Below the pieces are notes generated by a model. The model was given only the letters and a program-made list of their open reading frames with translations, ran no database searches and was not told the origin of the DNA. Source: Patescibacteria group bacterium (GTDB lineage: Bacteria > Patescibacteriota > Minisyncoccia > Phycocordibacterales > WO2-35-19). Taken from it: a DNA stretch of 64,000 nt. How positions within the stretch are numbered: position 1 is the stretch's first letter; each line of letters begins with the position of its first letter. Both the position numbers and the translations under genes were made by a program. Of the stretch, positions 3,394-61,881 are shown piece by piece. The stretch lies in NCBI GenBank assembly GCA_038056395.1, contig JBBUFS010000003.1:4344-68343 (forward strand). Direction: 5' to 3'.

Positions 3394-3513
3394 TAACCTC
3401 TCCCCGTCCCTCTCCTTACCTTAAGGAGGGGGTGACTACTATTTATTATTCAGCCGTTGAGTGGAACTTGTTGCGCGGTTCCCTCCTTAAAATAAGGAGG
3501 GTTAGGGAGGTTA
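3394..3513. repeat. Degenerate closed member of the cloverleaf repeat family (outer stem plus two CCCTC..GAGGG hairpins around a 48-nt insert)
   Basis: TAACCTC (3394-3400) pairs with GAGGTTA (3507-3513). Hairpins CCCTCTCCTT/AAGGAGGGGG at 3408-3432 and CCCTCCTTA/TAAGGAGGG at 3481-3501. Confidence 0.6.
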
Positions 3514-4161
3514 GGTTTGAGAAAGTTTCTTACAAAAACTTTTGCGATGGATTTCGGAAAGACCGTGTTTGAGGAGGAGGGAGTAATGGAGCTTTGTACC
3601 ATACCCTTTGTGAATTGGAAACATATAGAGAGGGAATTTCCCGCCCAGGCGGCACATTAGGCGGTCGCGGCGGACTTTGGCGACAATGGAGGCACAGGCA
3701 ATAAAAATATCTTTACTATCGCCTCCAATTATGGTTTTTTGATTTTTAAATTCTTTTGGCGCTTTGAGCAGACCATCCAACTTAATATTAAAAGTATCAA
3801 AGGTGCCCTTTGAGTTTTGTAAAGTGTGTTGTAATTTTTTTAAACATCTTTTTATTCCCAATCCTGTCGCATAAGAAATTCCTTTTTTGTCTATTATCTT
3901 ATTTGAAATGTGGGAGACTTTAAAATTTATTTTTCTTGTCCCGCGAAGCTTTAGCGAAGTGGGATTTTTCCTTAATTTCAAAAATTCTTTATAAATTTCT
4001 TTTCTTCTTTTTGGAGAAAACTGCTTTGAATCTTTTATTTTGCCACCCAGTATTTTTATAAGCTTGCTTCTCAAATTTTGAGGGGCTAGAAATGCCGACA
4101 AAGTTATAGGTCCCGCCAAGGGCCCTCTCCCCGCTTCGTCAATCCCAATTATGTAGATCAT
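3511..4161 (-). CDS. rnhB: Ribonuclease HII
   Basis: 216 aa, MIYIIGIDEAGRGPLAGPI... typical RNase HII N-terminus. Contains two repeat-derived segments (listed separately). Confidence 0.9.
   Translation of the reverse strand: MIYIIGIDEAGRGPLAGPITLSAFLAPQNLRSKLIKILGGKIKDSKQFSPKRRKEIYKEFLKLRKNPTSLKLRGTRKINFKVSHISNKIIDKKGISYATGLGIKRCLKKLQHTLQNSKGTFDTFNIKLDGLLKAPKEFKNQKTIIGGDSKDIFIACASIVAKVRRDRLMCRLGGKFPLYMFPIHKGYGTKLHYSLLLKHGLSEIHRKSFCKKLSQT
3797..3840. repeat. 44-nt segment inside rnhB duplicated at 56597-56640
   Basis: TCAAAGGTGCCCTTTGAGTTTTG is identical at both loci (23 nt); 38 of 44 nt match overall. Confidence 0.8.
3938..3965. repeat. Family B GC-rich repeat inserted in frame in rnhB (encodes PTSLKLRGT)
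   Basis: CCGCGAAGCTTTAGCGAAGTGGGA versus CCGCGAAGCTTCTGCGAAGTGGGA in rplU (59211-59234). Confidence 0.75.
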
Positions 4162-7477: not shown

Positions 7478-9313
7478 ATGGCAAAAACTGAACAAATTGA
7501 AAAAATTAGGCATTCCCTGTCGCACCTTATGAGTATGGTGGTGCAGGAGTCGTATCCGGAGGTGAGACTGGGAGTGGGACCAGTTATTGAAAATGGTTTT
7601 TACCAAGATTACGACTTACCTGAGATAATTAGTCCAGAAATTTTGCCGAAGTTGGAAAAGAGAATTAAGGAGCTCATAAAAGAAAATATAAAATTTGAAC
7701 AGCATGATATGGAATTTGATGAAGCTCTCAAATTTTACAAAAATGATCCTTATAAAACAGAACTTATAAATAATTTGAAAGATGGAGAAACCCCTTCGAC
7801 TGCGCTCAGGGCAGGCAAAGTCAGTTTTTATAAATCAGGAGAATTTGATAATCTTTGCGCTGGTCCTCATGTTGGTTCTACCAAAGAAATTGACCCGCAA
7901 GCTTTTAAACTTACTCACATCGCAGGCGCTTATTGGCGCGGCGATGAAAAAAATAAGATGCTCACCCGCATTTACGGACTGGCTTTTGAATCAAAAGAGG
8001 AGCTTGAAGAACACTTAAAAAATCAGGAAGAGGCTAAAAAAAGAGACCATAGAAAATTGGGCAAAGAATTAGATCTTTTTCATATTGACGAAGTTGTTGG
8101 TTTGGGACTTCCTTTATGGCACCCCAAAGGCGCTTTGTTGTGGAGAATTATTGAAAATTTTTGGTACGAAGAGCATTTAAAAAATGGCTACGGTTTAGTA
8201 AGAACACCTCATATAGGCAACAGAGTGCTTTGGGAAACTTCGGGACATTGGGGTTTTTATAACAAATCAATGTATCCACCCATGGAAGCTGGGCAAAGTC
8301 TGGAAGAAAAACAACAAAACAAAAAAGCGGAAAACTCTGAAGAATATTTGCTTAAGCCCATGAATTGCCCTTTTCATGTTCAAATTTATAAAAATAATCC
8401 TAAATCCTATAGAGAACTTCCCCTCCGCTGGGCTGAATGCGGCACGGTTTATAGATTTGAAAAGAAAGGAGAGCTTTCGGGTTTGGTTAGAGTCAGAGGT
8501 TTTACTCAAGATGATGCCCATATTATATGCAGAAAGGATCAGGTTGAGGATGAGCTTAAAAAAGTTATAGATTTTATTCTTTTCATTTATAAATCTTTTG
8601 GATTTGATATTGATAAAGTGAAAGTTTATCTTTCTTTGCGAGATCCAAAAAATAAAGATAAATATGCCGGCAATGACGCTGGTTGGGAATTTACAGAAAA
8701 TGTTTTAAGAGAAGTAGCCAAAGATAAAAAACTTGATTTCAAAGAAGAATTAGGAGAAGCGGCTTTTTATGGACCCAAACTTGATTTCAAAATTAAAGAT
8801 GTTTTGGGTAGAGAATGGCAATGTTCCACTCTCCAATTTGATTTTAATCTGCCCGAAAGATTTAATATGGTTTTTACAAACAATGAAGGCAAAGAAGAAA
8901 GACCTTATATGCTTCATCGCGCCTTGTTTGGTTCTTTTGAAAGATTCATAGGACTTTTGATAGAACACTATGCCGGCAACTTTCCTCTTTGGTTATCGCC
9001 TGTGCAGGTTAAAGTAATACCGGTGCGCGAATCGCACAACGCTTACGCGCAAGAAGTTTATGATTTGTTAAAAGAAAACGGCATTCGCGCCGAAGTTGAT
9101 TTGGAAGATGAAAATTTGGGTAAAAAAGTCCGCGCCGCCAAAAACGAAAAAATTCCTTATTGGATAGTTCTTGGTGACAAAGAAATTGAATCAAAAGAAG
9201 TCACTGTTGAATCCCGAAGCGCCAGCGAAGGTGCTGACAAAGGAAGCATTGGGCTCATGTCTCCTCAAAAATTCCTAGAACTTCTCCAAAAAGAAATAAA
9301 AGATAAAAAATAA
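7478..9313 (+). CDS. thrS: Threonyl-tRNA synthetase (no N-terminal TGS domain)
   Basis: 611 aa; begins in the editing/SAD domain (HSLSHLM), class II core (PMNCPFH, RVRGFTQDDAHI) and anticodon-binding domain. Confidence 0.92.
   Translation: MAKTEQIEKIRHSLSHLMSMVVQESYPEVRLGVGPVIENGFYQDYDLPEIISPEILPKLEKRIKELIKENIKFEQHDMEFDEALKFYKNDPYKTELINNLKDGETPSTALRAGKVSFYKSGEFDNLCAGPHVGSTKEIDPQAFKLTHIAGAYWRGDEKNKMLTRIYGLAFESKEELEEHLKNQEEAKKRDHRKLGKELDLFHIDEVVGLGLPLWHPKGALLWRIIENFWYEEHLKNGYGLVRTPHIGNRVLWETSGHWGFYNKSMYPPMEAGQSLEEKQQNKKAENSEEYLLKPMNCPFHVQIYKNNPKSYRELPLRWAECGTVYRFEKKGELSGLVRVRGFTQDDAHIICRKDQVEDELKKVIDFILFIYKSFGFDIDKVKVYLSLRDPKNKDKYAGNDAGWEFTENVLREVAKDKKLDFKEELGEAAFYGPKLDFKIKDVLGREWQCSTLQFDFNLPERFNMVFTNNEGKEERPYMLHRALFGSFERFIGLLIEHYAGNFPLWLSPVQVKVIPVRESHNAYAQEVYDLLKENGIRAEVDLEDENLGKKVRAAKNEKIPYWIVLGDKEIESKEVTVESRSASEGADKGSIGLMSPQKFLELLQKEIKDKK
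7793..7820. repeat. Family A repeat inserted in frame in thrS (encodes PSTALRAGK)
   Basis: CCTTCGACtgcgCTCAGGGCAGGCA versus CCTTCGACaagCTCAGGGCAGGCA at 40933-40956 and ACTTCGACaagCTCAGGACAGGCA at 61753-61776. Confidence 0.75.
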
Positions 9314-9317
9314 GAAA

Positions 9318-9713
9318 ATGGAAAATCTAAATCATCAAAAAGAAACTCGTCACGAGATTGAAGGTAATCCATATTACGAAGAAACCCACAGAAAAAATTT
9401 GGAATTTATGAAAAAGTTGATTGAACATGATTTGGGGATAGAATTAACAAACACCGAATTAATTAAATTATCGTTCATAATCGAAGATATTATTAGACAA
9501 ATGAGACGACAGGCAAAGGAAGTTGAAACTGGTTTTAGTACAATAGCTGGCTTTGAAGAAGTAACAGAAAAATTTTTAAGAGAATGTTACGGAGTTACTT
9601 ATGAAGAAATAGCGAGGCTTTTTCCGAGATCTGAAAATGAAGAGGAGGATGAGAAAAATAAAGAATTAAAGAAAAAATATTTTAGAAGAAAACAAGCCGA
9701 ACTTTATAACTAA
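9318..9713 (+). CDS. Hypothetical protein
   Basis: 131-aa ORF immediately after thrS; charged helical composition; no recognisable motif. Confidence 0.5.
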   Translation: MENLNHQKETRHEIEGNPYYEETHRKNLEFMKKLIEHDLGIELTNTELIKLSFIIEDIIRQMRRQAKEVETGFSTIAGFEEVTEKFLRECYGVTYEEIARLFPRSENEEEDEKNKELKKKYFRRKQAELYN

Positions 9714-11809
9714 ATATCAATAGTGGCCAGTTTGGCGTTGGATTGGATGAAGCTTTTGCGGGCGGGGACATCTGTGCCCATAAGGATGTCAAAAATGCGG
9801 TCGGCTTCTTGGGCGTCATCAACATTTATTTGTTTTAGAATTCTTCTTTTTGGATCCATTGTGGTCTCCCAAAGCTCTTCGGCATTCATTTCGCCCAAAC
9901 CTTTGTATCTTTGAACAGACAGCCTAGAGGTTTTAGCTGAGAGCTTAGAGGTTTCATTTTCGGATTCATTTTCTTCTGTTTGCCCAATTTCCTCGTTTTC
10001 AAATCTTTCTTCGCCCGCCGACTTGTCCATCGTAGCTTCAGCGAAGTTGGAAGCTTCGGCGGAGGCGGGGCCTATTATTCTGGCTTTTTCATCATCGCTA
10101 TAGGCATAAAATATTTCCTTTCCTTTCTTTATTTTATAAAGTGGCGGCTGAGCGATGTAAATATAACCTCCGTCAATAATGGGTCTGAAATATCTGTAAA
10201 GCAAAGTCAAAATAAGAGTGCGAATGTGGGCGCCGTCAACATCGGCATCTGTCGCTATTATTACTTTATGATATCTAAGTTTGGAAATATCAAAAGTATC
10301 TCCTATGGCAGTTCCCAAAGCTACAACCAAATTTTTAATTTGTTCAGAACCAAGCATTCTGTCCAGACGCGCTCTTTCTATATTTAAAATTTTGCCGCGC
10401 AAAGGCAATATAGCCTGTGTCCGCCTGTCTCTGCCGGTTTTGGCAGTGCCTCCTGCTGAATCCCCTTCCACAATGAAAAGCTCTGACTCTTCAGCCGATT
10501 TGCTTTGGCAATCAGCCAGTTTGCCCGGCAAAGTCATACCTTCTAAAGCCCCTTTTCTTAAAATTGAGTCCTTGGCGGCTTTAGCTGCCTTTCGTGCCCT
10601 CAAAGCCAAAACTACTTTATTAATTATGGCCCTAGCATCATCCGGATTTTCTTCCAAAAAGGCGTCAAAAGCTTCTCCAAAAACTCCCTCCACCATGCCT
10701 CTGGCCTCCACGCTGCCGAGTTTGGCCTTGGTTTGTCCCTCAAACTGTATTTCCCGAAGCTTAACCGAAATAACAGCGGTTAATCCTTCCAAAACATCAT
10801 CCCCCGTGAAAACATCATCTCCATTTTTGGTAAGATTATTTTTTTTAGCGTAATTGTTCAGAGTTCTGGTTAGAGAAGTTTTGAAACCGGTAATATGAGT
10901 ACCACCTTCACTGGTATAAATATTATTGGCAAAAGGCATAATTCGGGCCGATATGTCATCTACATACTGCAAAGCCACCTCCACTCCCTCAAATTTTTCA
11001 TTTATTTTTTCAACATAAAAAATATTTTTATGGATTGGTTTTTGGTTGTGATTGTAAAATCTAATCAAAGAGATAAGTCCTCCGTCAAAATAAAAAGTCA
11101 TAGACGGGGCTTCCAGCCTTAAGTCTCTCAAATAAAATACTTCATCATCTTTAATTTTCACCTCCCGCAAATCCAAGACAGATATTTTAAGGCCCCTTAC
11201 CAGATAAGCCTGCTGGCGCATATGATGAACAATTCTTTCAAAATCAAAATTTATTCCTTCTTTAAATATTTCAGCATCTGGTTCAAAAGTAATAATAGTG
11301 CCGTGGAGCTTGGAGGGACCAATTCTTTTTACTGCCATCTTTCTCTTTCCTTTTGAATATTCCTGAACATACATCCCTCCGTCTCGATGCACTTCCGCTT
11401 TCATATAAACGGAAAGAGCATTAACTACGGATGCGCCGACACCATGCAATCCTCCAGAAATTTTATAACCCTCTCCCCCGAATTTTCCTCCGGCGTGGAG
11501 AGTTGTCAAAATTGTTTCCAGAGCGGAAACTTTTGTCTGCTTATGAATATCAACCGGAATGCCTCGGCCGTTGTCAGCTACCCTAATGCGATTGCCGGGC
11601 AGGAATGCCACCTCAATATCATTGGCAAAATTACCCATAGCCTCATCACGGGAATTATCAAAAATCTCCACAATTAGGTGGTGCAGGCCGTCCGGTCCGG
11701 TGGTGCCGATATACATTCCCGGCCGACGGCGGACAGGCTCCAAACCCTCCAAAACGGTAATATTTTCAGCGCTATACCCGCCTTTTTTAGTCTTGTTCTC
11801 CTTTGTCAT
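9710..11809 (-). CDS. gyrB: DNA gyrase subunit B
   Basis: 699 aa; GHKL ATPase (LEGLEPVRRRPGMYIG), Toprim (EGDSAGG), C-terminal QRYKGLGEM; acidic insertion near the C-terminus. Confidence 0.95.
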   Translation of the reverse strand: MTKENKTKKGGYSAENITVLEGLEPVRRRPGMYIGTTGPDGLHHLIVEIFDNSRDEAMGNFANDIEVAFLPGNRIRVADNGRGIPVDIHKQTKVSALETILTTLHAGGKFGGEGYKISGGLHGVGASVVNALSVYMKAEVHRDGGMYVQEYSKGKRKMAVKRIGPSKLHGTIITFEPDAEIFKEGINFDFERIVHHMRQQAYLVRGLKISVLDLREVKIKDDEVFYLRDLRLEAPSMTFYFDGGLISLIRFYNHNQKPIHKNIFYVEKINEKFEGVEVALQYVDDISARIMPFANNIYTSEGGTHITGFKTSLTRTLNNYAKKNNLTKNGDDVFTGDDVLEGLTAVISVKLREIQFEGQTKAKLGSVEARGMVEGVFGEAFDAFLEENPDDARAIINKVVLALRARKAAKAAKDSILRKGALEGMTLPGKLADCQSKSAEESELFIVEGDSAGGTAKTGRDRRTQAILPLRGKILNIERARLDRMLGSEQIKNLVVALGTAIGDTFDISKLRYHKVIIATDADVDGAHIRTLILTLLYRYFRPIIDGGYIYIAQPPLYKIKKGKEIFYAYSDDEKARIIGPASAEASNFAEATMDKSAGEERFENEEIGQTEENESENETSKLSAKTSRLSVQRYKGLGEMNAEELWETTMDPKRRILKQINVDDAQEADRIFDILMGTDVPARKSFIQSNAKLATIDI
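10034..10070. repeat. Probable family-B-like repeat within the gyrB C-terminal insertion
   Basis: AGCTTCAGCGAAGTTGGAAGCTTCGGCGGAGGCGG resembles GGAGCTTTCAGCGGAGGCGG (22780-22799) and the family B core. Confidence 0.4.
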
Positions 11810-25368: not shown

Positions 25369-25384
25369 CTCACTCCACTTTTTC

Positions 25385-25883
25385 GACCCCACCCCGAATG
25401 CCTTACGGCATTCTGCCCCTCACCTTGCGAAGGTGAGGGGAAAAATTAAAACCAAAATAACTTTTAATTTTATCCAAAACTTTTTCAATATCATTTTCAA
25501 CCTCATTATTTTGAAATCTTAAAACTTTATAATCAAGTTCTCTAAAATATTTATCTCTAATCTCATCATATTCTTTGGCTTCTTTTGTGTTATGTATTTC
25601 TCCGTCTAATTCAACTATTAATTTCTTTTGTGGGCAATAAAAATCCAAAATGTAACCTCCTATACTGTGCTGTCTTTTGAATTTATAACCCAGTTTTTCG
25701 TGTCTCAATTCAAACCATAATATTTCTTCTGTTTTTGTTTGATTTTTTCTTAATTCTTTTCTTCTTTCTTTAAGAACCTCATTGTTGTGAATAAGTTTAG
25801 ACATTTTGATTTTTGTTCCCTTCTTATCCCCTCACCTTCGCAAGGTGAGGGGTAGTTCCGCTTTAGCGGAACGGGGTGGGGTC
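25385..25883 (-). mobile_element. Composite palindromic element carrying a DUF559 nuclease gene (cloverleaf repeat split around an ORF)
   Basis: Outer arms GACCCCACCCC (25385-25395) and GGGGTGGGGTC (25873-25883). Hairpins at 25396-25413, 25416-25440, 25828-25852 and 25855-25872. Same module order as the solo element at 42375-42463. Confidence 0.65.
25403..25804 (-). CDS. DUF559 (Vsr/restriction-endonuclease-like) domain protein
   Basis: 133 aa; EEILWFELR...LGYKFKRQHSIGGYILDFYCPQKKLIVELDGEIH typical DUF559. The last about 13 aa (SPHLRKVRGRMP) are encoded by the flanking repeat. Confidence 0.8.
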   Translation of the reverse strand: MSKLIHNNEVLKERRKELRKNQTKTEEILWFELRHEKLGYKFKRQHSIGGYILDFYCPQKKLIVELDGEIHNTKEAKEYDEIRDKYFRELDYKVLRFQNNEVENDIEKVLDKIKSYFGFNFSPHLRKVRGRMP

Positions 25884-25887
25884 GTTC

Positions 25888-29939: not shown

Positions 29940-31004
29940 CTATAAATATTCCCCTATTTTCAAGACATGTTTTATTAAAGTGGCGGTGTAACCCATTTCG
30001 TTGTCATACCAAGCGCAGACTTTTACCAAATTTTTATCTATCACCTTGGTTAAATTAAGGTCGGCAATTGATCCGTAAAGAGAACCAATAATATCGGCAG
30101 AGACAATTGGGTCTTCAGTTATTGTAAAAATGCCTTGCCACCTTGCCTCTCCCGCTGCTTCTTTGAGAATTTTATTTATTTCTTCCACACTGGTTTCCCT
30201 TTTTGAAATAAAAGTAACATCAACGATTGACCCCGCAATTACAGGAACTCGCATAGCCAATCCGTCAAATTTACCTTCTAATTCTGGAATAGCTTTAGTG
30301 ACGGCAATAGCCGCGCCGGTGGTTGTTGGCACGATATTCTGGGCAGCGGCGCGCCCCTCCTTCCAATCTTTTTTGTTTGGTCCATCTACTATGCTTTGAC
30401 TGGTTGTATATCCATGCACCGTGTTAAGCACCGCTTTTTCAATGCCTATTTTTTCATTTAAAATCTGAATAAGCGGCGCGCCGGCATTGGTGGTGCAAGA
30501 AGCATTTGAACTTATAATGCTTTTTTCTAATTTTTCATCATTTATACCCATCAAAACCATAACTTGAGTTTCGTCTATCGGTTCGTCTTTGACTGGCGCG
30601 GTTATAAGCACCCTTTTAGCTCCAGCATCAATATGAGCTTTAGCTTTTTCAAAAGAATTAAAGGCGCCCGTTGATTCAATAACCACATCTATTTCCAAAT
30701 CTTTCCACGGCAACTCTTTTGGTTCTTTTAAGCTAAAAAATTTAACTTCCATCGCCTCGCCGGAGCTTTGAGCGAAGGCGGGTTTTCCAATTATCAGCGC
30801 GTCTTTGTTTGCTTTCACAGAAACAGGAAATTGCGCAGCTCCATAGGCTGTATCATACTTTAAAAGATAGGCAATATTTTCTATATCACCCAAATCGTTT
30901 ATAGCCACCAGTTCTATTTCTGGCGTATTTTGCGAGAGTCTTATAAACGCTCTTCCAATCCTCCCCGCGCCATTCACGGCGACTTTAATTTTTTTATCCT
31001 GCAT
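29940..31004 (-). CDS. gap: Glyceraldehyde-3-phosphate dehydrogenase, type I
   Basis: [19 protein letters not shown], 354 aa. Confidence 0.93.
30753..30783. repeat. Family B repeat inserted in frame in gap (encodes [11 protein letters not shown])
   Basis: CGCCGGAGCTTTGAGCGAAGGCGG; compare CCGCGAAGCTTTAGCGAAGTGGG in rnhB. Confidence 0.6.
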
Positions 31005-33984: not shown

Positions 33985-34016
33985 CAAAAAACCCTTCGAT
34001 AAACTCAGGGTTTTTT
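33985..34016. terminator. Bidirectional hairpin terminator; stem-loop resembles the 5' half of family A
   Basis: AAAAAACCCTtcgataaactcAGGGTTTTTT between convergently ending genes. Confidence 0.6.
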
Positions 34017-34315: not shown

Positions 34316-34636
34316 TGCGTACTTTGTTACATTGCGATTAAAACGACCAATGGTTCGATTGCTCTCACCATAAAGCGGTTCCGCCTGCTGTTCGCGATAC
34401 AAAGCCCGCAAAACAAACAAAGAGAACTTAACACTTACTTTAATAATATATACCTATGCCTCCCAAAAGTCAACCCCATTGCACATTTAAATACAGATGC
34501 TATCATGTACGAGTTATTAAAAAAGTTCCGAAGCATAACCTTCCGCAATACCGAAATAGCCCAACCTTCACTAAAGTTACGGCGGGCAAGGCAAGAGAAT
34601 GCGGAAAAGCGACGGTTTTTGTTTTGCAAAATTATT

Positions 34637-39605: not shown

Positions 39606-39959
39606 ATGAAGATAAAGCTGCCTATTGAAAAAATTAAAAATGATATTTTAGGAAAACGGTATGAGCTTTCCGTTGTTTTTACAGGTAAAAACAAAATAAA
39701 ATCTTTAAATAAAAAATATAGAAAAAAAAATGTGGCGACAGATATTTTATCTTTCAATTTATCTCCGTCTATGGGGGAAATCTTTATTTGTCCGGAAATT
39801 GCAAAAACAAAATCAGCCAAATTTGATATGACATTCCCAAATTACTTGCTGTTTTTAGTTATCCACGCAATTTTTCATTTGAAAGGAATGGAACATAGTA
39901 GTAAAATGGAAAGATATGAGCTCGCGTATTACAGCCGGTATAGATATAGGCACTTATGA
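39606..39959 (+). CDS. ybeY: rRNA maturation endoribonuclease YbeY
   Basis: HAIFHLKGMEH (HxxxHxxGxxH). Confidence 0.85.
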   Translation: MKIKLPIEKIKNDILGKRYELSVVFTGKNKIKSLNKKYRKKNVATDILSFNLSPSMGEIFICPEIAKTKSAKFDMTFPNYLLFLVIHAIFHLKGMEHSSKMERYELAYYSRYRYRHL

Positions 39960-41112
39960 AGTGCGGGTAGTGGTTGCGGAACAGACGGCCCAAAATTATT
40001 TGCCAAATATTATAGGCACCGGCAGAGCCGAATCAAAAGGCCTTCGGCACGGGTATATAATAAACACCGCCGATGTTGCCAAGAGCGTATCCTTAGCCAT
40101 AAAACAAGCCGAGAAGTCTTCCGGCATCAAAATAAAAAAAGTGTTTATTTCTATAGGCGGAGTTGGTCTTTCCGGCCTAAATTCTCAAGGTTCGGCCATT
40201 GTCGGCCGGGCCGACCAGGAAATAACAGAAACAGATGTGGAACAGGCCATTGCCGCCGCCGAAGAATCCATACCAAGCGCTTTAATGCAGAACCGGAAGA
40301 TAATATATTCCATTCCCACCTCCTGGAAAATAGACGGAAAACCGGTATTGGGCAGAGTTCTCGGCATGAAAGGGGTAAAACTGGAAACTAAAGCCCTTTT
40401 CATCAGTTGTATTGAACTTCATCTGGACGATTTGGTGGAAGCGGTAGAAAACACCGGAGTGGAAGTAATTGATGTGGTTGCTTCTCCCATTGCCGCCAGT
40501 TTTGTAACTCTTTCAAAAAGCCAAAAGATTGCCGGCTGTGTGCTGGCTAACATAGGAGCAGAGACGGTATCAATTGTAGTATTTGAAAATAATATACCGA
40601 TATCTTTGGAAATATTTCCCATTGGCGGTTCAGATATCACCAACGATATCGCCCTCGGTCTTAAAATATCTTTAGAAGAGGCCGAGTCTATAAAACTGGG
40701 AGGAGTTACTGCCACTAATTATTCAAAGAAAAAATTGGAAGAAATTATTTCGGCTCGTCTGGGGGATATATTTGAATTGATTGAAGCTCATCTTAAAAAA
40801 ATCGGCAAGTCAGGTGTTTTGCCGGCCGGCATAATAATAACTGGCGGCTCTTCTTCCATCGGCCTGATTGAAGATTTAGCCAGAAGCTATCTTCGCCTGC
40901 CTTCCCGCATCGCCTCTTTGAATATTGGCAACCCTTCGACAAGCTCAGGGCAGGCAGGAAAATTTCAAATAAAAGATTCTTCCTGGTCTGTCGCTTATGG
41001 ACTCTGCATCATCAGTAATCTGCCAGACGAAGAAGAAAGGCTCGGCCTTAAAAAACATAGCCAAAATTTATTTAAAAAAGTGCTCCAAACCCTAAAACAC
41101 TTTCTGCCATAA
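39916..41112 (+). CDS. ftsA: Cell division protein FtsA
   Basis: ITAGIDIGTYEVRVVV, actin-like ATPase, upstream of ftsZ; 44-nt overlap with ybeY. Confidence 0.9.
   Translation: MSSRITAGIDIGTYEVRVVVAEQTAQNYLPNIIGTGRAESKGLRHGYIINTADVAKSVSLAIKQAEKSSGIKIKKVFISIGGVGLSGLNSQGSAIVGRADQEITETDVEQAIAAAEESIPSALMQNRKIIYSIPTSWKIDGKPVLGRVLGMKGVKLETKALFISCIELHLDDLVEAVENTGVEVIDVVASPIAASFVTLSKSQKIAGCVLANIGAETVSIVVFENNIPISLEIFPIGGSDITNDIALGLKISLEEAESIKLGGVTATNYSKKKLEEIISARLGDIFELIEAHLKKIGKSGVLPAGIIITGGSSSIGLIEDLARSYLRLPSRIASLNIGNPSTSSGQAGKFQIKDSSWSVAYGLCIISNLPDEEERLGLKKHSQNLFKKVLQTLKHFLP
40933..40958. repeat. Family A repeat inserted in frame in ftsA (encodes PSTSSGQAG)
   Basis: CCTTCGACAAGCTCAGGGCAGGCAGG. Confidence 0.75.
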
Positions 41113-42357: not shown

Positions 42358-42374
42358 CAACTTTTTTGTTTTTC

Positions 42375-42463
42375 CTACCTCACCCCGTTCCGCTAAAGCG
42401 GAACTGCCCCTCCCCTTTGCAAGGGGAGGGGCAATCCGACGCAAGTCGGATGGGGTGAGGTAG
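42375..42463. repeat. Solo cloverleaf (four-way-junction) GC-rich repeat
   Basis: 12-bp outer stem CTACCTCACCCC/GGGGTGAGGTAG encloses three hairpins: GTTCCGCtaaaGCGGAAC, CCCCTCCCCTTtgcAAGGGGAGGGG and ATCCGACgcaaGTCGGAT. Confidence 0.8.
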
Positions 42464-42505
42464 TAAGGGTTGGGGATGAGGTAGTAATATGATACAATAA
42501 ATTTT

Positions 42506-55157: not shown

Positions 55158-56534
55158 ATGCCAGAAATAAAATCGCATATAAGAATTCCGCCGCATAATT
55201 TGGAGGCCGAGAAAGCGCTACTTGGTTCGGTGATGCTGAGGCCGGAAGTGATGTTTGAAATTACGGACTTGGCGCACGCGGTTTCTTTTTATTCAGAAAA
55301 GCATCGTCTTATTTTTGAGACAATGTTGGATCTTTTTTCAAAAAGAAGTCCGACAGATTTATTATCTGTTTCTGCAAGATTGAAGGAAAAAAATTTGCTA
55401 GACGAAATAGGCGGCAACAGTTATTTGGGCGAGCTGGTCAATTCGGTGCCCTCGGCAGCCAATGCAAATTATTACGCCCAGATAATTCAAAAAAAACATA
55501 TCGCCAGAAATTTGATTGGCGCCGGGGATTTTGTGTCTTCTTTGGGGTATGACGAAGCCGAAGAATTGGAAAATCTCTTGGATCAAGCCCAAAAGAAAAT
55601 TTATGATGTGACAAACATTTCAAGCATACATAAATTTGTAGAACTTAAAGAAGAATTAACGGAGGCATGGGAAAGACTTGATCGATTGCATAATTCAGGA
55701 GACGGCTTACGAGGTGTGCCAACCGGTTTTAAAGAGCTTGACGAAAAACTTTCCGGTTTGCAAAAATCTGATTTGATAATTTTAGCGGCGCGACCTTCCG
55801 TTGGTAAAACTGCTCTGGCTCTTGATATTGCTCGCCAGACAGCCGTTTATCACAATACTCCGGTTGGCATTTTTTCATTGGAAATGAGTTCCCAGCAATT
55901 AGTTGATAGAATGCTTGCTTCCCAATCAAATGTTGACGCCTGGAAATTGCGTACAGGAAAATTGATCAGAGAAGACGATTTTTCAGCTATTCGCCAATCC
56001 TTGGATGTCCTTTCCAAAGCGCCCATTTTTATAGACGATCAGCCGGGCAACAATATTTTGAAAATGCGCTCAGTGGCCAGACGGCTCAAAAATGAAAAAG
56101 GGTTGGGACTGATTATTGTAGATTATCTGCAGTTGATGGCCACTAATAAAAATTATGATTCTATGGTCAATCAAGTAACCGAAATTTCCCGCTCTTTAAA
56201 AAATTTGGCACGCGAACTTGAAGTGCCTGTCATGGCCCTTTCCCAGCTTTCCCGCGCCATTGAACAGAGAGGTGGCAAGCCAAAGCTCTCCGACCTGCGC
56301 GACTCCGGTTCCATTGAACAGGATGCCGATGTTGTTATGTTTATACACCGCGAAGATAAACAAAAAAATACAAACGAAGCCGAAAAAACAAACATAGCCG
56401 AAATTTTGATTGAAAAGCATCGCAACGGCGCCACCGGCCGTGTTGAACTTTTCTTTAACGAAAAAAAGGCCTCATTCCTGCCCCTTGAAAAAGCCCAATT
56501 CACCGGCGCCGAAAGCGAGTTTAGAGAGTTTTAA
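55158..56534 (+). CDS. dnaB: Replicative DNA helicase DnaB
   Basis: PPHNLEAEKALLGSV, Walker A ARPSVGKT, SQLSRAIEQR. Confidence 0.95.
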   Translation: MPEIKSHIRIPPHNLEAEKALLGSVMLRPEVMFEITDLAHAVSFYSEKHRLIFETMLDLFSKRSPTDLLSVSARLKEKNLLDEIGGNSYLGELVNSVPSAANANYYAQIIQKKHIARNLIGAGDFVSSLGYDEAEELENLLDQAQKKIYDVTNISSIHKFVELKEELTEAWERLDRLHNSGDGLRGVPTGFKELDEKLSGLQKSDLIILAARPSVGKTALALDIARQTAVYHNTPVGIFSLEMSSQQLVDRMLASQSNVDAWKLRTGKLIREDDFSAIRQSLDVLSKAPIFIDDQPGNNILKMRSVARRLKNEKGLGLIIVDYLQLMATNKNYDSMVNQVTEISRSLKNLARELEVPVMALSQLSRAIEQRGGKPKLSDLRDSGSIEQDADVVMFIHREDKQKNTNEAEKTNIAEILIEKHRNGATGRVELFFNEKKASFLPLEKAQFTGAESEFREF

Positions 56535-56535
56535 C

Positions 56536-56593
56536 GACCCCACCCCGTTCTGCTAAAGCAGAACTGCCCCTCACCTTGCGAAGATGAGGGTGG
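56536..56593. repeat. 5' half of a cloverleaf-family element (outer arm plus two hairpins, no closing arm)
   Basis: GACCCCACCCC GTTCTGCtaaaGCAGAAC tg CCCCTCACCTTgcgAAGATGAGGG. Confidence 0.7.
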
Positions 56594-56596
56594 AAG

Positions 56597-56640
56597 TCAA
56601 AGGTGCCCTTTGAGTTTTGAGACGTATGGTGTAATTTTTT
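56597..56640. repeat. Copy of the 44-nt rnhB-internal segment
   Basis: TCAAAGGTGCCCTTTGAGTTTTG...GTAATTTTTT; see 3797-3840. Confidence 0.8.
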
Positions 56641-57558: not shown

Positions 57559-58221
57559 ATGAATTCTATAGAAAAACTGATTCAAATATTTTCCAATTTT
57601 CCAGGCATTGGGCCGAGACAGGCCAGGAGATTTGTTTATTATTTATTGACCAGAGCAAACAGAACTTTGAGTGAATTGGCAGAAAATATAAAAGATTTAA
57701 AAGATGATGTGGTTATATGCGAAGATTGCCACAGATTTTTTGAATTACAACATAAAAATCACAACAACAATGACGGCCATTGTAAGTGTAAAATTTGTTC
57801 TGATCAAAACAGGGATCATTCAACACTGATGGTAGTGCAAAGAGATGTGGATTTGGAATCTGTAGAAAAAAACGGGGGATTCAACGGTATTTATTTTGTG
57901 CTTGGCGGTTCGGTGCCGATATTGGAAAAAGAGCCGGAAAAAAGGATAAGGGTTAAAGAGCTAAAGGCGTTTTTGGAAAAGAAACTAAACCCGCCTTCGC
58001 AAAATGCTTCGGCGCGGCTAAGGGAAATTATTTTAGGAATGAACTGGAATCCAGAAGGAGAAAATACTGGTGACTATGTGGTAAAAATGTTAAACACCGA
58101 GTGTTCAACATTAATTAAAAAAGTAAAAATATCACATTTAGGGAAAGGTCTTTCTATGGGTTCTGAACTAGAGTATACTGATCCTGATACATTAAAAAAT
58201 GCGTTAAGAAATAGGTCATGA
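57559..58221 (+). CDS. recR: Recombination protein RecR
   Basis: FPGIGPRQARRFVYYLL (HhH), Cys4 zinc finger, Toprim; TGA stop. Confidence 0.88.
   Translation: MNSIEKLIQIFSNFPGIGPRQARRFVYYLLTRANRTLSELAENIKDLKDDVVICEDCHRFFELQHKNHNNNDGHCKCKICSDQNRDHSTLMVVQRDVDLESVEKNGGFNGIYFVLGGSVPILEKEPEKRIRVKELKAFLEKKLNPPSQNASARLREIILGMNWNPEGENTGDYVVKMLNTECSTLIKKVKISHLGKGLSMGSELEYTDPDTLKNALRNRS
57990..58018. repeat. Probable family-F-like repeat in frame in recR (encodes PPSQNASARL)
   Basis: CCCGCCTTCGCaaaatGCTTCGGCGCGG shares CGCCTTCGC with 51364-51372 and 63724-63733. Confidence 0.4.
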
Positions 58222-58820: not shown

Positions 58821-59260
58821 GAAATTTTATCTATCTTCACTTTAAAATATGGCTGGCGGTGGCCGTTCTTTTTAAAATAACGGCTTTTTTGCTTGTATTT
58901 GATAACTATGACTTTGGCATTGCGGCCGATTTCAACCAAAGTTCCGGAAACTTTCGCTCCATCTAGGTAAGGAGCGCCGATATCGGTGGCATCAGCGCCA
59001 TTATCAACCAAAAGAACTTTATCAAAAACTACCGTATCCCCCTCCTTTGGCTCGACGGAGCCTTTGGCGGAGTCGGCTTTCAATTTCTCTATTTTTATTG
59101 TATCTCCCACAGCCACTCTGTACTGCTTGCCCCCGGTCTCAATAACGGCAAAAGCGCCATTATTTACAGGTTCAGTTTTGGCTACCTTTTTTGATTCTTT
59201 TTTGCCCGCTCCGCGAAGCTTCTGCGAAGTGGGAATTTCTCTTATTTCTGCCATAACCAT
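58817..59260 (-). CDS. rplU: 50S ribosomal protein L21 with N-terminal extension
   Basis: FAVIETGGKQYRVAVGDTIKIEKL core. About 45-aa extension containing repeat-encoded IPTSQKLRGAG. Confidence 0.88.
   Translation of the reverse strand: MVMAEIREIPTSQKLRGAGKKESKKVAKTEPVNNGAFAVIETGGKQYRVAVGDTIKIEKLKADSAKGSVEPKEGDTVVFDKVLLVDNGADATDIGAPYLDGAKVSGTLVEIGRNAKVIVIKYKQKSRYFKKNGHRQPYFKVKIDKIS
59204..59235. repeat. Family B repeat in frame in the rplU N-terminal extension
   Basis: CCGCGAAGCTTCTGCGAAGTGGGA; 22 of 24 nt identical to rnhB 3941-3964. Confidence 0.75.
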
Positions 59261-61407: not shown

Positions 61408-61881
61408 ATGCACGAGGAAATTCAAGAGCAAATAAAGGAAGCCATGCGGGCTAGAGACCAAGTGAGGTTGACGACTTTGCGGGGTATGCTGGCCGCTTTT
61501 ACGAATGAATCAGTGGCTTTAAAAAGAACTCCTAAAGATAAATTATCCGACGGCGAGGCAGTCGCCGTAATCAGGAGATTGGTAAAACAGAGAAAAGATT
61601 CTATAGAGCAGTTTGAAAAAGGAGGACGCAAAGATTTGGCGGACAATGAAAAGGCGGAACTTAAAGTTTTGGAAGAATTTTTGCCGGCCCAGATGAGTGA
61701 GGAGCAAATTGAAAAGATTGCAAGATTGAAAATTGAAGAATTAAAAATCACCACTTCGACAAGCTCAGGACAGGCAGACAAAAGCAAAATCGGAATTCTG
61801 ACCGGAGCTGTTATGAAGGAATGCAAAGGCCAAGCCGACGGCGCTCTGGTCAAAAAAATTGTTGAAAAAGTTTTGGAATAA
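61408..61881 (+). CDS. yqeY: GatB/YqeY domain protein
   Basis: IKEAMRARDQVRLTTLRGMLAAF..., 157 aa. Confidence 0.85.
   Translation: MHEEIQEQIKEAMRARDQVRLTTLRGMLAAFTNESVALKRTPKDKLSDGEAVAVIRRLVKQRKDSIEQFEKGGRKDLADNEKAELKVLEEFLPAQMSEEQIEKIARLKIEELKITTSTSSGQADKSKIGILTGAVMKECKGQADGALVKKIVEKVLE
61753..61778. repeat. Family A repeat inserted in frame in yqeY (encodes TSTSSGQAD)
   Basis: ACTTCGACAAGCTCAGGACAGGCAGA. Confidence 0.75.

Follow-up and report, generated by a model that had tools for sequence, protein, structure and literature searches.

Several described repeats can lie within protein-coding genes, among them the Rickettsia palindromic elements (RPEs), reportedly set out by Ogata et al. 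in 2000, and the mobile GC clusters of yeast mitochondria, of which an optional cluster in var1 is an example. Repetitive extragenic palindromic (REP) sequences and REP doublets forming hairpins (REPINs), including the GTAG- and CGTC-tagged superfamilies, form a second such group (Di Nocera et al. 2013, PMC3733652), to whose CGTC-tagged members the RPEs are related (PMC3733652), and transposable elements of the miniature inverted-repeat type (MITEs; Correia, Nezha and others) form a third (reviewed in PMC10969869). Here we analyse a 64-kb stretch of contig JBBUFS010000003.1 from a Patescibacteria group bacterium (about 40% GC; hereafter the window), in which an earlier note, made from the sequence alone, had pointed to a GC-rich repeat, family A, inside the genes thrS, ftsA and yqeY. 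We find that the three copies are 24-nucleotide (nt), eight-codon insertions at the DNA level without target-site duplication, and that family A seems to be a very small, very widespread mobile-like element, apparently undescribed.

Family A is inserted in frame in three essential genes

The family A motif, CCTTCGAC-N3/4-CTCAGGRCAGGC, occurs at three sites in host genes of the window, where none would be expected by chance, each time on the sense strand of the gene (Table 1). A 23-mer, CTTCGACAAGCTCAGGGCAGGCA, matches exactly at 40934–40956 and with one mismatch at 61754–61776 and had no match in 100 shuffles. The sequences and positions are as first proposed. The three reading frames, with host identities assigned by Pfam, are uninterrupted as claimed, and encode the peptides TPSTALRAGK (thrS), NPSTSSGQAG (ftsA) and TTSTSSGQAD (yqeY). 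The spacer is 4 nt (TGCG) in thrS versus 3 nt in the other two genes, and this one-nucleotide difference does place the 3' half of the motif in another frame in thrS (LRAG) than in ftsA and yqeY (SGQA). A profile of about 250 family A copies and a covariance model each recovered the three gene copies, a partial copy and one doubtful match, and nothing else strong in the window. The window copies are single units, three of the four intragenic. The host is Parcubacteria/Paceibacteria-like: the window ThrRS is identical to an NCBI protein labelled Patescibacteria group bacterium, and the nearest relatives of the window FtsA and YqeY belong to Zambryskibacteria/Paceibacterota.

Alignment with orthologues, the check that the earlier note had proposed, identified the copies as insertions, in that close orthologues lack precisely these 24 nt. 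Among 120 ThrRS homologues, the 89%-identical P0003 (L003) and P0005–P0013 read KEAGE(T/K)KVSFY where the window reads KDGETPSTALRAGKVSFY; the closest FtsA homologue, P0121 (L125; 92% identical), reads IGNGKFQIK where the window reads IGNPSTSSGQAGKFQIK; and the YqeY homologues P0242–P0244 read I(T)DKSK where the window reads ITTSTSSGQADKSK, with the insert also absent from L127. The closest orthologues, which have no insert, are 80–92% identical to the window proteins. At the DNA level, the ftsA junction is AAC-CCTTCGACAAGCTCAGGGCAGGCA-GGA in the window versus AAT-GGA in its sister P0121/L125, a clean 24-nt difference, and the yqeY junction is ACC-ACTTCG...CAGGCA-GAC versus ATA-GAC. At thrS the comparison is ACC-CCTTCG...CAGGGCAGGC-AAA versus ACC-AAA, with one neighbouring codon missing.

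Homologous residues do not occupy the insert sites in solved homologues: alignments with S. aureus ThrRS (1nyq) and B. subtilis YqeY (1ng6) are gapped exactly there. In a confident AlphaFold 2 model of YqeY (predicted local distance difference test score, pLDDT, 86.7), the sole segment with pLDDT < 50 is residues 117–122, which lies within the insert, between helices 98–111 and 128–138; of the three inserts, it is for that in YqeY that a model shows an exposed, disordered inter-helix loop. The FtsA model, built on a shallow alignment, was too poor for use (pLDDT 43.8), but nowhere else do 116 FtsA sequences vary as much in length as at the insert site. Overall, the inserts occupy indel-tolerant positions of essential proteins, and they would be translated as eight extra residues.

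Table 1. Family A copies and their host genes in the window
Feature	Coordinates	Strand	Description
Family A copy, thrS	7793..7816	+	CCTTCGACTGCGCTCAGGGCAGGC; 24-nt insertion, PSTALRAG, 4-nt spacer
Family A copy, ftsA	40933..40956	+	CCTTCGACAAGCTCAGGGCAGGCA; 24-nt insertion, PSTSSGQA
Family A copy, yqeY	61753..61776	+	ACTTCGACAAGCTCAGGACAGGCA; 24-nt insertion, TSTSSGQA; stem partly decayed
Partial or degenerate copy	33987..34015	+	CCCTTCGATAAACTCAGGG; A6/T6 lengthen stem; covariance model E = 0.006
Uncertain diverged superfamily copy in rpsA	34346..34375	+	TGGT/ACCA stem, TCGATTGCTCTC loop; covariance model E = 0.016
thrS (threonyl-tRNA synthetase), host gene	7478..9313	+	Pfam
ftsA, host gene	39916..41112	+	Pfam
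yqeY (GatB/YqeY domain protein), host gene	61408..61881	+	Pfam

Family A behaves as a nucleotide-level element

Family A is a nucleotide-level element and not a conserved protein motif, because synonymous positions are kept, the reading frame is not the same in every gene, and further copies are found outside genes, in intergenic DNA, as well as within or close to a group II intron. The ftsA insert is identical at 23 of 24 positions between the window and L126, while the two ftsA genes are 77% identical overall and 52% identical at third codon positions. In gyrB of the relative L001, a 24-nt copy, CCCATTCGACGAGCTCAGGGTAAA, is read in a third frame as PIRRAQGK, whereas the window gyrB has no copy, and in L129 an SMC-like gene contains one more. 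The codons CCT, ACA, TCA and GGA, which end in A or T, are retained in hosts of 60–70% GC, where they are rare. Hundreds of additional copies stay similar in nucleotide sequence, so that the similarity did not fade as the sample grew, and the nucleotide-level reading of the earlier note, which rested on the frame difference between thrS and ftsA/yqeY, is strengthened by the further frame of L001 gyrB.

A protein-level linker of the PSTSSGQA type, or a motif of the DNA-uptake kind that biased uptake, rather than insertion, has enriched, is barely credible in this light. PST..SGQA is the commonest frame among coding copies, and a dependence on DNA uptake is presumed for Patescibacteria, both of which would suit such an account. 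Other frames are nevertheless used (LRAG in thrS, IRRAQGK in L001 gyrB), synonymous sites are conserved and A/T-ending codons kept even at 65–70% GC, many copies are non-coding, the copies are insertions and not substitutions, and the motif spans phyla whereas uptake sequences are species-specific. The frame differences and the comparisons of filled and empty sites already contradict it.

A short stem with a conserved loop

The unit reads (G)A-CCCT : TCGAC-N3/4-GCTC : AGGG-CAGGC, where the colons part stem from loop, and consists of a 4-bp stem, a conserved 11–12-nt loop and a 5-nt YRRRC tail. The conserved span is about 27–30 nt, and conservation beyond the motif extends over a few bases only (G, A, C, C on the 5' side; T(C)(T) on the 3' side). 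Variants of the tail include CAGGC, CGAAC and TGAAC, and the 5' flank is (G)ACC. We assessed the stem in 121 additional copies chosen by their loop alone (T-TCGAY-N3/4-CTC-A). The three flanking pairs are Watson–Crick in 47% of these copies, alternative stems include CCC/GGG, TGC/GCA, GGC/GCC, TGG/CCA, TCC/GGA and CGG/CCG, and paired cells amount to 72.6% versus 58.1% in shuffles, none of 500 of which reached the observed value. The covariation score was 0.344, whereas shuffles gave 0.141 and sliding the partners gave no more than 0.19. Among the primary hits, the fourth stem pair joins T with A in 41 of 47. In Sphingobium, two units form an inverted, REP-like dimer between genes, and compensatory changes in its left arm preserve that arm's own small stem.

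At gathering thresholds, Rfam matched only tRNAs and one group II intron across the window, 18 low-GC loci and 18 Acidobacteria loci. Resemblances noticed by eye to Tn3 terminal repeats, the hammerhead core, rRNA, signal recognition particle RNA, RNase P RNA and dif/att sites proved to be no real matches, and a likeness to the tRNA T-arm was dropped because position 53 is C in family A, not G.

The hairpin at 33985–34016, which contains the partial copy of Table 1, folds well (z = −4.4) because of its A6/T6 flanks. The earlier note had called it a related hairpin that forms a terminator. It does fold, and it lies between divergent gene starts, those of a minus-strand DUF192 gene (33970) and of plus-strand rpsA (34034); a terminator scan called nothing at 33985–34016, and the terminator label is therefore unsupported.

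Occurrence across phyla and viruses

Scanning one genome per species with the exact pattern yielded at least 120 loci, which by record titles fall in at least 15 phyla. These comprise Acidobacteriota, Chloroflexota, Pseudomonadota, Bacteroidota (including the isolates Gelidibacter, Aequorivita and Leeuwenhoekiella), Nitrospirota, Planctomycetota, Verrucomicrobiota, Myxococcota, Desulfobacterota-type lineages, Binatia, Dormiibacterota, Eremiobacterota, Latescibacterota, Methylomirabilota and Patescibacteria. In IMG/VR, the motif occurs in 110 stretches of environmental viral contigs, as against one for the reversed control pattern and none for the shuffled one, and it is also found on plasmids of Sphingobium and others. 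The motif was absent from 28 Gb of E. coli genomes, and cultured phages yielded merely a 20-nt match in one Pseudomonas phage lineage, which we take as chance.

In-gene copies with Pfam support include one in the thymidylate synthase ThyA of Ottowia (FYVA-PSTGSGQA-KLSCQLYQR), and others in a Ser/Thr kinase, a PfkB kinase, a NUDIX protein, HsdM, a phage portal protein, an ATP-dependent DNA ligase of Curtissbacteria and a CCA/polyA polymerase of Parcubacteria. In two Burkholderiales contigs (L075 and L122), ORFs that by their translations resemble Bug-type periplasmic binding proteins agree in the position of the motif, ahead of a shared FP.K motif near the N-terminus, and read it as (P/A)ST(G/S)SGQA, as if the site had been struck twice or the copy inherited. 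Leeuwenhoekiella aestuarii (L042, 6146–6448) has two sense copies, one within the D1–D4 region of a group II intron and the other 30 nt past the matched intron region; family A therefore also settles in structured RNA. A Trichlorobacter plasmid copy sits within a transposase gene and not at the end of an insertion sequence, and a pair of inverted copies 1.6 kb apart on viral contig L135, considered as a possible autonomous element, encloses small ORFs only and has flanks without shared ends.

Conservation of the loop from phylum to phylum would imply a recognition partner, such as a nuclease, a transposase or an RNA-binding factor, that is itself conserved or travels horizontally. Family A may then be the core of an undescribed pan-bacterial, phage-borne mini-hairpin element of about 24–30 nt, possibly the smallest widely distributed mobile DNA, a proposal that we put forward tentatively. 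If it is true, in-frame colonisation of coding sequence would extend even to the most reduced bacterial genomes. Full-text searches of the literature accessible to us with the motif's DNA strings and the peptides of all frames returned nothing relevant, and those on repeats and insertions in the candidate phyla radiation turned up only the known rRNA insertions. The earlier note knew of no formal description for this lineage; we likewise found none, and the motif, present in so many phyla and on viral contigs, is not lineage-specific.

Turnover among close relatives

In a neighbour-joining tree of ThrRS, the insert carriers (the window and P0004) are successive outgroups to insert-free sequences, and in a third lineage P0023 (L129) carries a copy whereas P0027 (L130), 93% identical, does not; L129 and L130 share 93% nucleotide identity, yet the insert is polymorphic between them. 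Across the tree of 116 FtsA sequences, the full state (PST.SGQA) is intermingled with empty sites and with a shortened state (SSAQAG, 18 nt), so closely that sisters can differ, and no insert is present in the sister of the window FtsA. Insert positions lie one codon apart between lineages, both in thrS (window versus L001) and in yqeY (window versus L128). Such patchiness, down to sister sequences, implies that family A has been inserted repeatedly at the same loops, lost precisely and repeatedly, or both.

Could each gene instead have received a single ancient insertion that was then inherited vertically, decayed, and was many times precisely deleted, or was exchanged as an allele through homologous recombination among related Paceibacteria, so that the element is now immobile in this lineage? 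The thrS copies of the window and L001 have in common a 4-nt spacer, CTGN, that is unusual, and their difference of 4 positions in 24 is close to the divergence of the gene, many FtsA relatives have shorter degenerate versions (SSAQAG and similar) at the same site, and the L129 copy has drifted towards A/T. We nonetheless give this account very little credence, as it demands many independent precise losses on the FtsA tree, sisters included, sits poorly with the one-codon shifts in position, and faces ftsA copies that are far more alike than synonymous sites.

The junctions also bear on a repair-templated patch, in which breaks or stalled forks would receive the unit from another genomic copy or from imported DNA, with template switching or microhomology-mediated repair in place of a dedicated enzyme, and selection would then filter the products. 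Junctions that combine deletion with insertion (8 nt becoming 29 nt between L130 and L129; 3 nt lost at thrS) fit this route, as do unit lengths that vary among 18, 21, 24 and 27 nt, the absence of target duplication, a base preceding the insert that is mostly C or AC, like the 5' end of the unit, and the lack of a transposase among the window ORFs checked. The route is unlikely all the same, because it leaves unexplained that the sequence copied in so many phyla is a particular one of 24 nt, whose stem covaries and whose loop is conserved, and several junctions are perfectly clean between codons.

Orientation in genes

In the Patescibacteria set, the motif has sense orientation at each of the five distinct gene sites (thrS, ftsA, yqeY, gyrB and the SMC-like gene). 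Sense copies outnumber antisense ones by 56 to 16 in viral-contig ORFs of at least 200 aa and by 36 to 22 in genome ORFs of at least 250 aa, against a neutral expectation of about 60:40, given that GC-rich DNA makes ORF calling noisy and that there is a stop in one antisense frame. Antisense copies within genes do exist, in HsdM of Gelidibacter and in a phage portal gene.

The excess of sense copies in coding regions might reflect an RNA-linked element, that is, a protein- or RNA-binding mini-hairpin in transcripts, possibly spread via reverse transcription, which would account both for sense orientation in genes and for presence in a group II intron. The two sense copies in or near the Leeuwenhoekiella intron, a loop whose sequence is conserved while the stem covaries, and the position of the Sphingobium dimer in a 3' untranslated region are in keeping with it. 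We consider it quite improbable, given that neither a reverse transcriptase nor a partner was identified, no Rfam family matches, and the two antisense in-gene copies run counter to it; moreover, selection alone can yield a sense bias, because one antisense frame holds a stop and the others encode Cys- and Leu-rich peptides.

Possible mode of spread

We favour, with moderate confidence, the reading that family A is a mini-hairpin repeat, REP-like but non-canonical, which is mobilised in trans and which selection confines to loops, in frame and in sense orientation. A non-autonomous hairpin would be copied to new sites by a trans-acting activity, presumably an enzyme, that recognises the folded single strand, in the mode of REP/RAYT or IS200/IS605 elements, which likewise leave no target duplication. 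Purifying selection would then purge copies from essential genes unless they are a multiple of three in length, in sense orientation, in a tolerated frame (PST..SGQA, PST..LRAG or IRRAQGK) and in a surface loop.

A number of observations weigh against REP-like mobilisation. No candidate for a transposase or other mobilising gene was found among the approximately 35 window ORFs checked or in the gene tables of the relatives, and the 64 kb contain just four copies. With its 4-bp stem and 12-nt loop, family A differs widely from a canonical REP, the gene copies in the window fold no better than shuffles (z = +0.6 to +1.3), and REP families are normally specific to a species or genus rather than shared across phyla. 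DNA transposition does not predict the sense bias, which needs selection as its cause. At the junctions, the L129/L130 difference is a replacement of 8 nt by 29 nt and not a clean insertion, the thrS site is not fully clean given the 3 nt lost beside the copy, and FtsA relatives carry an 18-nt version; such combined deletion–insertion and variable-length events fit repair-templated insertion as well as transposition.

Other GC-rich repeats in the window and its relatives

The window holds further GC-rich sequences. In the RNase HII gene (3511–4161, minus strand), a different 27-nt GC-rich hairpin repeat, TCCCGCGAAGCTTTAGCGAAGTGGGAT, lies in frame at 3939–3965. It is absent from L001, and at the same site it is present in L130 and absent from the 93%-identical L129, so that this family is polymorphic at one fixed site. 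A related copy at 59189–59247 forms part of an N-terminal extension of ribosomal protein L21. The RNase HII ORF also contains, at 3797–3840, one copy of a 44-nt direct repeat (TCAAAGGTGCCCTTTGAGTTTTG...) that begins with a small hairpin and recurs with 89% identity in intergenic DNA at 56597–56640.

The window gyrB (9710–11809, minus strand) has a 45-nt GC-rich insertion, GTCCATCGTAGCTTCAGCGAAGTTGGAAGCTTCGGCGGAGGCGGG, at 10025–10069 in a variable C-terminal region, absent from L001, L004, L129 and L130. A 48-nt repeat is shared, at 75% similarity, by the GAPDH gene (30738–30785, minus strand) and recR (57987–58034, plus strand), and the GAPDH copy, read in sense orientation, resembles family A box by box. 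Similarities of this kind suggest that the repeat families of the window may belong to one superfamily. In the 3' part of thrS, a second GC-rich patch, TCCCGAAGCGCCAGCGAAGGTGCTGAC (9212–9238; SRSASEGAD), lies where the alignment with S. aureus ThrRS stops and may be another insert.

At 42372–42466, 3' of ftsZ, lies an intergenic GC-rich, cloverleaf-like element of three hairpins within an outer stem, which has no match in Rfam; related copies are found downstream of other genes at 25377–25440, 25828–25886 and 56528–56591. Comparison of L243 with L244 and of L129 with L130 revealed further GC-rich coding indels of 18–36 nt, for example GGCCTGCCCGCCAGTAGGCAG and CCAGCCTCCGCTAAAGCTACGGCGGACAAAGCA, and their occurrence between close Paceibacteria pairs indicates that in-frame GC-rich indels are general in these genomes. 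The earlier note had counted inserts of one family or another in at least 8 and perhaps 11 housekeeping genes of the window; additional GC-rich inserts are indeed present in the genes for RNase HII, GyrB, L21, GAPDH and RecR, and the count is borne out in part. A census of GC islands in the window at a 14/20 threshold was too permissive to be useful.

Discussion

In ultra-small genomes, a 24-nt repeat appears to keep reshaping essential proteins (ThrRS, FtsA, GyrB and YqeY), which bears on the origin of protein novelty and on the tolerance of mutational load in reduced genomes. A loop common to at least 15 phyla and to viruses points to a so far unrecognised, widely shared system of recognition or mobilisation. 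There are practical consequences as well: the inserts disturb marker-gene alignments for Patescibacteria phylogeny, their three-frame translations (PSTSSGQA, LRQAQG, FDKLRAG) seed spurious hypothetical proteins, and the insertion points are naturally tolerated sites for tagging essential proteins.

The precedent that the earlier note had drawn, that of the RPEs, applies in part. Like RPEs, family A is interspersed, lies in frame in conserved and often essential genes of a small AT-rich genome as well as in non-coding DNA, and occupies structurally tolerant sites in inserts that orthologues lack. RPEs, however, measure about 100–150 bp and encode 30–50 residues, as against a unit of 24–30 nt and eight residues, and they are strongly palindromic, whereas family A is no palindrome, with a fold no better than that of shuffles and a stem of 4 bp only. 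RPEs are also confined to Rickettsia, while family A, here in a Patescibacteria host, reaches at least 15 phyla.

With REPs (PMC3733652), family A shares GC-rich interspersed units in the 20–40-bp range, a stem-loop followed by a short conserved unpaired tail, inverted dimers at times (in Sphingobium), the absence of target duplication, occasional placement in frame within genes, and superfamilies that cover several phyla; the CGTC repeats likewise have no dedicated transposase. The GTAG or CGTC tag of REPs (PMC3733652) is absent from family A, which has the YRRRC tail instead, and a REP stem of at least 8–9 bp with a loop of 4–5 nt (PMC3733652) contrasts with the 4-bp stem and 11–12-nt loop of family A, in which, unlike in REPs, the loop is the most conserved part. 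REPs frequently form extragenic head-to-head dimers; family A has the dimer between genes in Sphingobium, and in the window it occurs as single units that are mostly intragenic. Scanning of window ORFs turned up no RAYT gene.

Yeast mitochondrial GC clusters are similarly short and GC-rich against an AT-rich background, show polymorphism among strains and can lie in frame within a protein gene, but they are palindromes of 30–50 bp that have a short target duplication and occur only in the mitochondria of yeast. MITEs, too, are non-autonomous short repeats able to land in genes; they are usually 100–400 bp long and carry terminal inverted repeats and target-site duplications, neither of which is seen at the filled and empty sites of family A. 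DNA uptake sequences, in turn, are species-specific, arise by substitution and occur in both orientations, whereas family A consists of insertions, crosses phyla and is sense-biased. Family A behaves as RPEs and intragenic REPs (PMC3733652) do; it lacks the length and long palindrome that define RPEs, the long stem and GTAG/CGTC tag of REPs, and the terminal repeats and target duplication of MITEs.

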